This document shows, one piece after another, positions 41,699 through 60,920 of a stretch of 64,000 bases of DNA. Origin of the DNA: Octopus vulgaris (lineage: Eukaryota); contig OX597814.1 of assembly GCA_951406725.2 (NCBI GenBank), positions 106,144,001 to 106,208,000 of the forward strand, written 5' to 3'. Each line of letters starts with the position of its first letter. Within the stretch, counting starts at the first letter, position 1. A program made the position numbers and the translations under genes. Below the pieces are notes generated by a model. It was not told where the DNA came from. It ran no database searches and worked only from the letters and a program-made list of their open reading frames with translations.

Positions 41699-42200
41699 AA
41701 CAATTGCAGCGTGGAAAGTGTTTACAAGCCATTTAAGAACACACAAAAAGCGTTACATTCACTTCAACATTTACATTTAATTTGCCAAAATATTTTCTAT
41801 TTCTTTATTACCCACAAGGGGCTAAACACAGAGAGAACAAACAAGGACAGACAAACGGATTAAGTCGATTATATCGACCCCAGTGCGTAACTGCTACTTA
41901 TTTAATCAACCCCGAAAGGATGAAAGGCAAAGTCGAACTCGGCGGAATTTGAACTCAGAACGTAACGGCCGACGAAAAACCGCTTAGCATTTCGCCCGGC
42001 GTGCTAACGTTTCTGCCAGCTTGCCGCCCTATTTATCAAAATATTTTCGTCGCTTTGAAACCGCGACCTCTTCACTGACAAAATTCCGTGATGCACGGAA
42101 TTTTGTCAGTGAAGAGGTTGCGGTTTAAATGTTGAAGTAAATCTAACGGTTTTTGTGTGTTTTTGAATGGCTAATAAACTCCTTCCACACTGCAATTGTT
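41699..42200. mobile_element. Palindromic (fold-back) element, probably PLE-derived, interrupted by a SINE
   Basis: 41699-41773 is an imperfect inverted repeat of 42126-42200; near-perfect 33-bp central hairpin at 42058-42126. Confidence 0.7.
41798..42030 (-). mobile_element. Family A SINE with Tx1-like tail and an 18-bp TSD
   Basis: Full head, B box and central domain; tail ...tttagccccttgtgggtaataaagaaata; TSD atttgccaaaatattttc (41780-41797) / atttatcaaaatattttc (42031-42048). Confidence 0.92.
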
Positions 42201-43030
42201 TTTATTCAAGGATAAATCCCGAGTTCAGCGTTTTCTTGCAGAGCAAAACAAGATCATAGATGATGTTTACATTCCTTCTGGATAGTTACGGGGAATTTGG
42301 CAGGGTCCATTGTCTGACTGAGTTTAATTTTAAATATTGCTGCAATGACAATTTCAGTGCTGAAAGTTATGGCGGAGGGGATATGTCGAAGAATTACTTC
42401 GTTATAACCGAAACTCTTCAAAATAAGGAATCATTTGGTGGAGAGACACGATAGTTAAGGCAGAAGTTCTTTGATCGTTGGTCTGCTGGTCTTGCTGACC
42501 TGGAGCTAAGTCATCTTTGACCTCAGGATTCCTGGATCAAATCTGACCTGGGGCTAAATTACAAGGTGCTCGCAAAGCTGTATTTGTAAAACTATAAGAT
42601 GCAAAGAAAGTCATTGCTTCGTCCTTGATTTGTGCAATTAAACGCTGTAAATTAATTAGTGTTTTTGAACTTATCTAAACTCGCTACTATTTTTTAGAGA
42701 TTAGTCAAGAAGGGTGGGAATTAGACCGGGTGCGTCTGAGGCGGTTGATATTTATTCTGAATGTTTTTAGTTCAGTGTTTGTAAGACAAGAAACGAATGA
42801 ACAAGGGCGGTGGGATCGAAAGTATTGCATCAAGGGGAAGAAGGACTAGGTGCAGCATTTAGTGTACAGAGACATTGTGAAGGTGACGTGTAAGTTAGGA
42901 GTGCCGAGGAGGAGGGGCGTTTATGCCACCGCAAGCAGCACAGAAAAGCGGAGGTCGTTGAAATAGCAATGCTTTTACCTTGGCGAGAGAGGATTGGTAA
43001 AGTATTGACTGTTGTATTACTGATAGAAGA

Positions 43031-43320
43031 GTGAAGGCGCTTGGCTTAGTGGTTAGGGCCATTCGAATCACGATTAAGGTCGTGAGTTCAATTCCCGGCG
43101 ACGCGTTGTGTCCTTGAGCAAGACACTTTATTACACGTTGTTACAGTCCACACAGCTGGCAAAAATGAGTTGTACCTGTATTTCAAAGAGCTGAATCTCC
43201 CCGAGAACTACGTTTAGGGGTACATGTGTTTGTGGAGTGCTCAGCCACTTGCACGAGGAAGCTACTCCATTAATCATATCAGCTGGGACCCTTGTCGTCG
43301 TAACCGACGGATTGTGCTCC
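43031..43320 (+). mobile_element. tRNA-derived CORE-like SINE, family C
   Basis: A box tggcttagtgg, B box gagttcaattcc, CORE-like gtgtccttgagcaagacacttta; distinct from families A and B. Confidence 0.8.
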
Positions 43321-43987
43321 TAGTGATAGACGAAGATAAAGAGAGAGAAAGCTCATCTATAGAACGTGCGCTGGTTCCTCTCCTTGCATCTATATTAGTG
43401 TGTCTAAATGTAACGGAATATCAAAAAAGAAATATAAAGACAGAAATAGAAAATGGAGGCAACAACAAGGAACGCGTCCCAGTAATACTTCTATATTATA
43501 TCCGTGTCACAGTTTTGGAGTGGTTTAAATGATTGAAACGAGAATCAATACATTTAAATAATTTGTTTTCAATACCAACAGCTTCAAATTAAAGTTTTAG
43601 TAAATGTCTCCATGTGGATGTGTTTTGTGTGAAAAAGAACAGCCACATGTTGCATGGGATCATTAAATGTAGGTTTGTGTAAAATCAAGACAGATACGAT
43701 ATGGAGAGGCACCAGTTGGGAATAATTGAAATACATGCAGTGAAAGACTAAAATATATGAGTCTTTTTTTTAGGTGATCGGTTTTAAGCAAAAGAAAATT
43801 AGAAAGAAAAAAAAAGATTTGCCATTGGTTTGGTTGCATTTGTGTTGTTGGTGTTGTTGTTGTCGTCGTCTTCGAATGTTGCATTCTTACGCAACAAAAC
43901 CTTCAGTAACTGATTGTTAATCATAAAACAAAATATTTCAAGTATGGGGATTTTATCCGGCTTGTTGAGGTCAGTGGGAATATATTT

Positions 43988-44182
43988 GACAAACAAGGAC
44001 AGACAAAACGGATTAAGTCAATCACATCGACCCCAGTGCTCAACTGGTACTTATTTTATCGATCCCGAAAGCATGAAAGGCAAAATCGACCTCGGCGGAA
44101 TTTGAACTCTGAACATCGCGATGGACGAATTACCACTAAGCATTTGACCGGTGTGCTAACTATTCTGCCAGTTCACTGCTTT
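43988..44182 (-). mobile_element. Family A SINE (Tx1-tail subfamily, tail truncated)
   Basis: acaaacaaggacagacaaaacggattaagtc...gacctcggcggaatttgaactc. Confidence 0.85.
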
Positions 44183-44204
44183 AACTTGCGTTAATATAAC
44201 GAAG

Positions 44205-44353
44205 TATTTCTTTATTACCCACAAGGGGCTAAACATAGATTGGACAATACACACATGTGGGGGACAATCAACGTATGAAAGAATGGAATAGTGAAATTAT
44301 ACAATGAAGATGGAACGCCCCCCCCCCTCAAGACCCACTCCGGGTGATTATTA
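44205..44353 (-). mobile_element. 5'-truncated retroelement 3' end with the same terminus as the Tx1-tail SINE; 16-bp TSD
   Basis: Ends ctatgtttagccccttgtgggtaataaagaaata but the upstream sequence is non-SINE; TSD cgttaatataacgaag (44189-44204) / cgtaaatataacgaag (44354-44369). Confidence 0.75.
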
Positions 44354-58741: not shown

Positions 58742-58898
58742 AGGTAGGTAGGTAGGTAGGTAGGTAGGTAGGTAGGTAGGTAGATAGATAGATAGATAGA
58801 TAGATAGATAGATAGATAGATAGATAGATAGATAGATCGATAGATAGATAGATAGATAGATAGATAGATAGATAGATAGATAGATAGATAGATAGATA

Positions 58899-59707
58899 AG
58901 TTTCTTTATTAGCCACACAGGGCCGAACAAAGAGGGGGCAAAAATACGATATAGAGCTTTTCTTTTCGAAAATATAAAAAAGGAGAAAAATAAAATTCCA
59001 ATCAAGAGGAATCGTGTATCATAGAAAAATTTTTAAAGTCTAAAAAGTAAGATTAGATTTATCCGTGGAAAGAAAAGCCTACGGAAAAGACCACGGTAAC
59101 TTCAGGCAGGGCAGGGAGGGAATAAACACATTAGAGCAAAGTGCCCCCCCCCCCCACTCTCTCTCTTCGATTTACCAGATCTTGCTCAAAGTGGTTTCGT
59201 CACTCGCACGCACCATCTTTGCTACATCCACCCACCTTTTTTTGAAACTTTCACGAGACAAAACCTGCATCTCCATTCTCAACTTTCTTCTCAAGTGGTA
59301 CTTGAAAAATTTGGTGAGTAATTGGCCAGAGAGGTAAGTGTTTGTCCCCAATCCTTTCGCTCGAGTCCGCCACACACATTTTTTCACCATGGCCACCAGT
59401 ACGAAGAAGACTGCCTTGCTTTCCCGGCTGAAGGCAGGAGGCGGAGCAATCCAGATGACAGACTTGGCCGACAAGCGGACTCGTCCCACACGTGACAGCA
59501 GCCGTTCACAGGTCTGAAATGGTTGGACACTGCACGAGTGCGAAGAGAACGGATTCGTCGCTCTGACCGCATCTCGGGCAAGTCGGTCCGGTGTGTCTCG
59601 AACCGTGCCTGTAGAGCTTATCCTGAACAAGTAATGCTTCTCGATAGCACTGCCAGGCCAGGTATCTTTGGTGATTGTCCAGAGGTCCCGGCTCGAAAAT
59701 TGTCCTC
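58899..59707 (-). mobile_element. Tx1 LINE, 5'-truncated copy C (diverged subfamily, frameshifted)
   Basis: [22 protein letters not shown] and ERLLSRVGRVRLSAKS...FKKRWVDVAKMVR in different frames; same terminal ggctaataaagaaac; (GATA)n on both sides. Confidence 0.88.
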
Positions 59708-60574
59708 GATAGATAGATAGATAGATAGATAGATAGATAGATAGATAGATAGAGAGAGAGAGAGAGAGAGAGAGAGAGAGAGAGAGAGAGCGAGAAAGAC
59801 AGACAGACAGACAGAGACAGACAGACAGACAGATAGATAGGTAGATAGATAGATAGATAGATAGATAGATAGATAGATAGATAGATAGATAGATAGATAA
59901 AGAGAGAGACAAACAGGTAGAAATACAGACAGACAGACAGAAATACAGACAGACAGACAGACAGACAGACAGACAGACAAATAAATAGATAGATAGATAG
60001 ATAGATAGATAGATAGATAGATAGATAGATAGATAGATAGATAGATAGATAGATAGATGTAAATGTACATACGGAGGTAAGCATATGTTATTTCTAATAT
60101 ACGTCCGTTTGTCTAGTTCTATCGTTTGTTTAGTTTTTAAGTTACTGAATTTTTAGGAAACTGTCTTAAGCGCACCAGAAATACTACTGGTTGACATTAC
60201 TCGACTAGCTAGAAAGAACAGCAGATCTCGCCCTCTTTCTTTCTCTTTCTCTCTCCCCCCTCTCTCTCTCTCTCACACACACACACACACACACACACAT
60301 TATATACTCGCATCGCAGAAAGAAGGAAGAACAAACTGAAGAGCTAATTAGCTCATATACAACACCAAAAACAAAAAAAGAAAACAGTGCTGCCACGGTT
60401 GGAACGCTTTTGTCCATAGGCCTAATTAAGTGAACCTGCGCTCGGACTAAACACGAACAACAACAACATCTACTACTTCTCCAATTGTAATTCACTGACT
60501 TTCAGTCATTTATTTCAGTTGTTGCTTAGAAACGTATATTTTTACTGTGGTTGCGACCGTATGATGATATCTAC

Positions 60575-60680
60575 TTTTATGAGACCTACATGTGTGGTAT
60601 AATATGTATGACATCACATGTACGATTACCACATATATGATATTCACATGTATGATACCCACATGTATGATATCCGCATA
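60575..60680. repeat. Degenerate ~15-bp minisatellite (cacatgtatgatatc)
   Basis: Repeated acatgtatgat units seen directly. Confidence 0.65.
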
Positions 60681-60688
60681 CAACCTCT

Positions 60689-60920
60689 AAGGCGGCGAGC
60701 TGACACAAACGTTAGCGCGCCGGGCGAAATGCTTAGCGGTATTTCGTCTGTCTTTATGTTCTGAGTTCAAATTCCGCCGAGGTCGACTTTGCCTTTCATC
60801 CTTTCGGGGTCGATAAATAAAGTACCAGTTACGCACTGGGGTAGATGTTATCGACTTAATCCGTTTGTCTGTCCTTGTTTGTCCCCTCTATGTTTAGCCC
60901 CTTGTGGGCAATAAAAAAAT
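60689..60920 (+). mobile_element. Family A SINE with Tx1-like tail and a 19-bp TSD
   Basis: Full-length; tail ctatgtttagccccttgtgggcaataaaaaaat; TSD atatccgcatacaacctct (60670-60688) / atatccacatataacctct (60921-60939). Confidence 0.92.

Follow-up and report, generated by a model that had tools for sequence, protein, structure and literature searches.

The DNA examined here is a 64,000-nucleotide stretch of the Octopus vulgaris genome (GCA_951406725.2, contig OX597814.1, positions 106,144,001 to 106,208,000; hereafter the window, whose own numbering is used). It contains copies of a tRNA-type short interspersed nuclear element (SINE) and of long interspersed nuclear elements (LINEs) of the L1/Tx1 group that end in a common 3′ tail. 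A full-length SINE occupies 41798..42030 on the minus strand and is flanked by an 18-bp target-site duplication (41780-41797 / 42031-42048). Another, at 60689..60920 on the plus strand, has the same tail and a 19-bp duplication (60670-60688 / 60921-60939). Each duplication includes two mismatches. The tail of the first copy (41798..41850, minus strand) is made up of a pyrimidine/TGT tract, a 4-bp hairpin (GCCC-CTTGT-GGGT) and AATAAAGAAATA, with no poly(A). A third copy with this tail (13340..13569, plus strand) lacks a duplication of its own; it adjoins the body of another SINE, running directly into the internal GGTATT site of a SINE with an older tail. A preliminary description of the window had reported the common tail of these three SINEs, the 18- and 19-bp duplications and the absence of a true poly(A), all of which was borne out. 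It had missed a fourth tail, at 44205 on the minus strand, which belongs to a 5′-truncated non-SINE insert of ~150 bp (44205..44353, the start being approximate) with a 16-bp duplication seen by eye. The insert resembles the 3′ end of L113, one of the elements described below that encode only open reading frame (ORF) 1.

Between 55914 and 59709, three 5′-truncated L1/Tx1-group LINE copies of two related families are stacked on the minus strand in a single GATA/TATC microsatellite. The copy at 55914..57500 belongs to a young family that targets (TATC)n and retains the C-terminal 380 amino acids (aa) of ORF2 (56355-57497, zf-RVT domain). A second copy of the same family lies at 57641..58742 within GATA/TATC repeats. 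The third (58899..59709) is a more distant relative, with 52% aa identity in the C-terminus and the same kind of tail and target.

The end of the SINE at 41798 aligns with that of the LINE at 55914 (both minus strand) over 50 columns with one 3-nt gap, 41 of 47 SINE bases being identical. Adding the two terminal bases by hand gives 42/49, the figure in the preliminary description. The alignment scores 55, and 500 dinucleotide shuffles of the LINE 3′ untranslated region (UTR) gave a mean of 19.4 and a maximum of 29; none reached the observed score. All nine SINE-LINE pairs in the window (scores 37-55) lie above 500/500 shuffles. Chance similarity between AT-rich regions around polyadenylation signals, raised at the outset as a possible source of the match, is thus ruled out. 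Three further LINE-like fragments of the window, scored against the tail, reach only 15-18. Fragments of other retroelements, labeled by eye and without the tail, lie at 8760-9299 (minus strand), which we take to be the C-terminus of an element with a restriction-like endonuclease, at 28905-29721 (minus strand), presumably an apurinic/apyrimidinic (APE) endonuclease of CR1 type, and at 51649-52047 (plus strand), presumably an RTE-like zinc-finger C-terminus. The tail partnership between SINE and LINE is real and falls in a LINE group where tail sharing is rare, and the partner is reassigned from the LINE family of the window to a sister lineage.

Copy number, tail replacement and landing sites of the SINE

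Tailed SINEs and LINEs were located across the 2.8-Gb genome by sequence patterns; less than 0.1% of the genome was read. The 24-nt motif of the SINE tail has 35,247 exact matches (0 for the reversed control), and the SINE body precedes it in 29 of the first 30. Stretches placed at round coordinates and totaling 520 kb contain 42 tailed SINEs, a density that extrapolates to ~2x10^5 copies. The element is short (~230 bp), non-coding, dispersed and bordered by target-site duplications, as a SINE should be. Its head, putatively tRNA-derived, shows box-like motifs when compared by eye with a consensus; ARAGORN reported 0 tRNAs anywhere in the window, and Rfam gave 0 matches for the copy at 41798. 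Ohshima and Okada reportedly described the octopus SINE families OK, OR1 and OR2 in 1994. The present SINE may well be one of them; a resemblance to OR1/OR2/OK or to the Meta, Deu or CORE superfamilies is likewise presumed.

Among 88 SINE bodies in 604 kb, 46 have the new tail, 25 have an older, different tail and 17 were left unclassified by the rule, most of these being older-tail SINEs by eye. New-tail and older-tail SINEs diverge immediately behind the shared body, and therefore the new tail was swapped in: the SINE acquired its LINE-derived tail by replacement of an older one. Two SINEs at 12894..13330 (plus strand), with the same head and body and the older tail, provide an internal control for the swap. 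Older subfamilies (12894-13330 and 13570-13735 in the window) share the head and body and have other tails, followed by ATT-rich repeats. The mean pairwise distance among the 45 new-tail copies compared is 0.11, that among the 25 old-tail copies 0.22.

Insertion sites were read from 221 SINE tails, gathered by patterns and not at random. Like the LINEs, the SINE copies stop two bases past AATAAAGAAA. In 87/221 the tail is followed by another SINE, entered at either of two fixed positions, and 74/221 run into the internal GGTATT site. Repeated insertion at the GGTATT site has produced head-to-tail SINE runs with a period of ~184 bp (G000:C1:4607441-4608384; L186; L095:8700-9300). The other 134 tails have unique flanks, and 46 of these copies have a duplication (median 17 bp, 41/46 at 13-22 bp, mostly 14-20 bp). 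The duplications are L1-sized; older-tail SINEs offered only 4 usable copies for comparison. The 134 sites start with, among others, GGTA (26), TATA (20), AGAA (15), GAAA (9), GATA (8), GGTT (8) and TATC (2, one of them in the window). A single hairpin base predicts the site: T goes with GGT (32/70, never AGA) and C with AGA (18/63; p 4e-9). The landing sequence of the SINE depends on its subfamily. This link fits RNA-templated priming from the transcript flank and different drivers for each subfamily equally well, and the data cannot separate the two.

The hairpin tail of the L1/Tx1-group clade

Copies of the (TATC)n family of the window are young: identity over 380 aa is 98-100% in each of the 108 matches scored, many of which fall within a 1152-aa open frame. 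A full copy (L091) encodes a 1152-aa ORF2 with Exo_endo_phos (APE endonuclease), reverse transcriptase (RT; RVT_1) and zf-RVT domains. Its best relative of solved structure is human L1 ORF2p (E 3e-55, vs 3e-21 for R2), and its closest named relative is from Argonauta hians. The two ORFs, with an ORF2 composed of an N-terminal APE, an RT and a C-terminal zinc-binding region, are those of the L1 group. A CCHC zinc knuckle in ORF1 is a Tx1-clade trait not known from mammalian L1 ORF1; a CCHC pattern lies upstream of ORF2 in 19/21 elements, with a weak Pfam zf-CCHC match (18.3 bits vs a cut-off of 20.8). The 23-nt tail motif of the family has 6,273 exact matches, CATATCT follows the tail directly in 26 of the first 30 (by eye), and full-length copies have TATC repeats at both ends. 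Such a target-sequence preference is a Tx1-type trait and, in the available portion of Kojima (2015, PMC4494074), common in the Tx1 clade. The Tx1 families Kibi and Koshi named there also target microsatellites, but (TC)n or (TTC)n instead of the (TATC)n of the present LINE. No named Tx1 reference is among the 120 listed homologs or 6 clusters, and the outgroups of the RT tree are unnamed or "hypothetical" proteins. By its domains and motifs, the LINE of the window is best described as an L1-group element with Tx1-like traits.

Relatives of this LINE, gathered by a zf-RVT search together with 20 fetched elements, make up many families with intact ORF2s of 1125-1152 aa that are 55-71% identical to the window family. 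Their tails have one layout: a pyrimidine tract, a small hairpin, AATAAAGAAA and an end point ~6 nt past AATAAA, with no poly(A). From 184 ORF2 ends, 120 had a usable AATAAA-like signal and 37 were distinct. Three of these were dropped (L024 and L264, where the wrong signal had been picked, and L179, where a SINE follows the LINE). A hairpin was called when at least 4 pairs lay within 3 nt of an AATAAA-like signal; an earlier rule (28/37, control 22%) missed obvious cases and was rewritten. Hairpins are present in 30/34 distinct ORF2-linked ends vs 259/976 control sites (27%), and 1000 shuffles gave a mean of 7.6 and a maximum of 15. Around ten stem types occur, e.g., GCCC/GGGY, AGCC/GGCT, GATT/AATC, AAAATC/GATTTT and ACCT/AGGT, with the pairing kept, and 27 of the 30 loops end in GT or AT. 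The hairpin tail is a trait of the entire L1/Tx1-group clade in this genome. A covarying terminal stem-loop, which the preliminary description had suggested looking for, is thus found in the LINE ends, where the pairing is kept by compensatory change; this and a shared 3′-terminal sequence are two of the marks of a stringent SINE-LINE pair. What is conserved clade-wide looks like the hairpin structure rather than the sequence motif (...gccc..tgtgg.taataaagaaa.a) proposed earlier.

Candidate partner lineage and ORF1-only passengers

Scoring of 34 LINE ends against 133 SINE tails placed the lineage with a 1132-aa ORF2 (L266 type) at the top (L311 56.0, L313 52.1, L263 51.3). The (TATC)n family scored 36.6 (rank 19/34), and its hairpin has a 6-nt loop vs the 5-nt loop of the SINE, a different register. 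The two lineages are on different branches of an RT tree (FastTree, built from 20 sequences of this genome and 9 from databases; L284 was too short to include). The (TATC)n family is abundant, young and intact and shares the tail, and 2/134 SINE sites start TATC, one in the window. These points speak for it as the mobilizer, but 26/30 of its own tails are in TATC-type sites, and its current copies, at 98-100% aa identity, are younger than a SINE burst with a distance of 0.11. Given these differences and its low rank, its register and its branch, it was rejected as the main partner, and we consider it very unlikely to be the main mobilizer of the SINE. The earlier proposal of a Tx1-type partner thus stands in part: L1/Tx1-group LINEs are the source of the tail, and duplication lengths are those of L1, but the window family is a cousin rather than the best partner (36.6 vs 51-56).

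Divergence between 3′ UTRs of the L266 type is 0.06-0.09 for older copies and 0-0.025 for young ones, so the older copies of that lineage are roughly as old as the SINE. In the comparison of ages that had been called for, it is this lineage that roughly fits the SINE value of 0.11, not the (TATC)n copies. We give slightly better than even odds to the main driver being an older subfamily of the L266-type lineage (L311, L313, L263, L375) or a close sister.

No LINE of another clade was found with the tail in the 520-kb sample, where the 49 tail matches are 42 SINEs, 3 truncated SINE tails and 4 (TATC)n-family tails, the last two groups assigned by eye. A non-Tx1 LINE with a better match, which the preliminary description had named as an argument against its claim, turned up neither there nor among the window fragments. 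An unsampled LINE of another clade (RTE, CR1, Nimb/I or R4) might drive the SINE, with the tail as a passenger relic. The small fraction of the genome read leaves room for one, and the older-tail SINEs, ending in ATT-rich repeats, probably used another partner. We regard such a driver as extremely unlikely, however, as all 49 matches are of the three kinds above, the other LINE-like window fragments score so low, and long duplications are known to fit L1-group endonucleases.

The A-box of the SINE is a nesting site of the SINE itself. A search for tails of non-SINE type at this site gave 77 matches, of which 30 were read: 22 SINEs, 3 probable SINE fragments, 1 short truncated tail and 4 LINE-type elements. 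The LINE-type elements, inserted in the same register, are two with ORF2 (L375 of L266 type, and L398) and two with ORF1 only. Non-GGG tails at the A-box site were considered as a further element and rejected; both copies read are SINE variants.

A second kind of passenger came to light through a pattern joining the bases upstream of the window-LINE hairpin to the hairpin of the SINE, which mostly retrieved SINEs with deletions. Several families have an ORF1 related to that of the LINE, no ORF2 and a SINE-type hairpin tail. Of the 17 loci that were extended, five have duplications of 17-23 bp, and no match to ORF2 lies between ORF1 and tail in the eight long ORF1-bearing elements. L178 (~1.95 kb, 17-bp exact duplication) and L183 (2.1 kb, 20-bp duplication) exemplify elements in which ORF1 is followed by a LINE 3′ end and which moved as a unit, as in HAL1 (half-L1). 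Young elements of this kind have an intact 374-379-aa ORF1 and form head-to-tail arrays. The common end of two independent passenger kinds supports a cis-acting signal for mobilization. The tandem arrays (L218-L225, L229, L231) have a period of 1.78-1.95 kb and sometimes lie beside full LINEs, and the ORF1 of their elements includes a long lysine/glutamate-rich tract. Two ORF1-only families (L172, L178, L179, L184, L142, L176, L183) are at fixed positions of another abundant repeat, at sites beginning GAGGAC and GATCC. Insertion at a fixed position within another repeat recalls Tx1L in Tx1D.

Proposed recognition of the tail and comparison with known systems

With a probability of roughly 0.78, the SINE took over ~45 nt from the 3′ end of a LINE of the L1/Tx1 group, whose ORF2 copies it and is predicted to recognize the hairpin beside AATAAA instead of a poly(A). 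The RNA polymerase III (Pol III) transcript of the SINE would be bound at the hairpin by ORF2, the target nicked by the endonuclease, and reverse transcription begun at a fixed position behind AATAAA. Subfamily-specific landing could arise from base pairing between the nicked target and a few flank bases on the RNA, or from different subfamilies being served by different LINE lineages. It is likely that these L1-related LINEs without poly(A), unlike human L1, choose their passengers by a folded RNA tail.

Several observations weigh against this reading. The SINE hairpin has only 4 bp, and individual tails are no more stably folded than their shuffles (z -0.1 to -1.4). The 34 LINE ends are related (15/30 hairpins are of the GCCC/GGGY type), so the count overstates their independence, and 64/184 ORF2 ends had no usable signal and were left unscored. 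No LINE was found that matches the entire SINE tail: one family matches the hairpin half, and L284 and L297, whose hairpin differs, match the upstream half. No 5′ half of a host SINE could be found within 1.5 kb of any of the four LINE-type elements inserted at the A-box site. SINE sites mostly start with GGTA, TATA, AGAA or GAWA, and no LINE family with that spectrum was found. Finally, AATAAA is the canonical polyadenylation signal, and a role in 3′ processing could account for its retention.

This last point leads to another explanation, in which the LINEs keep the tail as a 3′-processing or termination signal, a single template switch transferred it to the SINE, and ORF2 uses the A-rich end without specific recognition of the hairpin. 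The weakness of the hairpin and the A-richness of the last 12 nt agree with it, as does the nature of AATAAA. A Pol III SINE needs no such signal, however, and yet 35,247 copies keep the 24-nt motif exactly. SINE copies end at the same position as the LINEs and have no poly(A), their duplications do not begin with A runs as L1 sites do, and the stems covary across LINE lineages. On balance we find processing with a single capture improbable. Under recognition of the tail by ORF2, one may go further and propose that an animal L1/Tx1 clade recognizes its hairpin tail, which lacks poly(A), stringently and by structure, and combines this with priming by RNA-carried flank, so that source copies pass their landing sequence on. 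We put this forward tentatively and think it rather doubtful. If true, target sites, those within the SINE among them, would be inherited through RNA by LINEs, by ORF1-only passengers and by the subfamilies of the SINE.

SINEs with L1-clade partners are rare. There are 3 among 58 SINE-LINE pairs in the available portions of two surveys (Ohshima, 2012, PMC3472496; Ohshima, 2013, PMC3747384), all in plants or algae: maize/sorghum ZmSINE2 and ZmSINE3 with LINE1-1_ZM, and Chlamydomonas SINEX-3_CR with L1-1_CR. The word "octopus" is absent from the main text of PMC3747384. As in octopus, these pairs have a common 3′ end (~45-50 nt in maize; PMC3472496, PMC3747384) and a hairpin kept by compensatory changes, there taken as a sign of stringent recognition (PMC3472496). 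The octopus pair differs in being from an animal and in having no poly(A), in which the algal pair ends, and also in its many target-biased LINE families, ORF1-only passengers and ~2x10^5 SINE copies. The crocodilian SINEU and Tx1-Mar elements resemble it in that mobilization by the Tx1 clade was inferred and in the preference for a site inside another repeat (Kojima, 2015, PMC4494074). SINEU elements have small nuclear RNA-derived heads and poly(A) where the octopus SINE has a tRNA-like head; they were linked by target choice, no LINE with the SINEU-1 3′ end being reported in the portion available, whereas in octopus the tail itself is shared (PMC4494074). HAL1, HeT-A and Ag-Sponge are likewise non-autonomous, with ORF1 only and dependence on a full LINE, as far as the sections available describe them (PMC5753468, PMC5786205). 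Unlike them, the octopus ORF1-only elements have the hairpin tail of the SINE, site preferences and head-to-tail arrays of ~1.8-1.9 kb period. Among molluscs, the partners named in the accessible text for MetaSINEs and bivalve HCD-SINEs are CR1, CR1-Zenon, L2 and Nimb (PMC4824008, PMC11481361, PMC4758252). There too, one SINE head and body persists by exchanging LINE-derived tails, but an L1/Tx1 partner such as that proposed here is not listed in those parts. The main text of PMC4824008 and PMC11481361 does not mention "Tx1" once, and in the accessible text of these mollusc studies octopus appears only through a citation for OR1/OR2.

Active families in an annotation of octopus repeats (PMC13282606, cited in this comparison beside PMC8967140) include 13 of L1-Tx1 and 893 SINE families without classification; the terms partner and tail are absent from the part available. 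No prior description of the pair was found in a literature search that did not extend to Repbase, Dfam, SINEBase, supplements, Ohshima and Okada 1994 or Albertin 2015. If the proposed partnership holds, it would name the engine behind a large share of the SINEs in this genome. It also bears on an open question, whether an L1 ancestor had specific RNA-tail recognition that was later relaxed to poly(A), which in the available text of PMC3472496 rests on the three plant/algal SINEs. The octopus clade adds a covarying hairpin, two passenger kinds and numerous young ORF2 copies that are intact and differ in hairpin and target, a diversity that amounts to a ready-made swap system (ORF2 x tail x flank). 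L1 relatives that are independent of poly(A) and biased in their sites may be of interest for RNA-templated gene insertion.

Two features of the full-length (TATC)n copies may be added. A hairpin with an 8-bp stem lies in the 5′ UTR ~150 nt from the 5′ end (L091:2449-2470; also L094 and L095). None comparable was found upstream of ORF2 in 20 other elements checked, the one other match being the tail of a neighbor. The 13-nt core of this 5′ UTR hairpin is identical to the tail hairpin of the SINE. ORF1 of the otherwise intact L091 is split over two overlapping frames (L091:2507-4305) and includes a CCHC knuckle.

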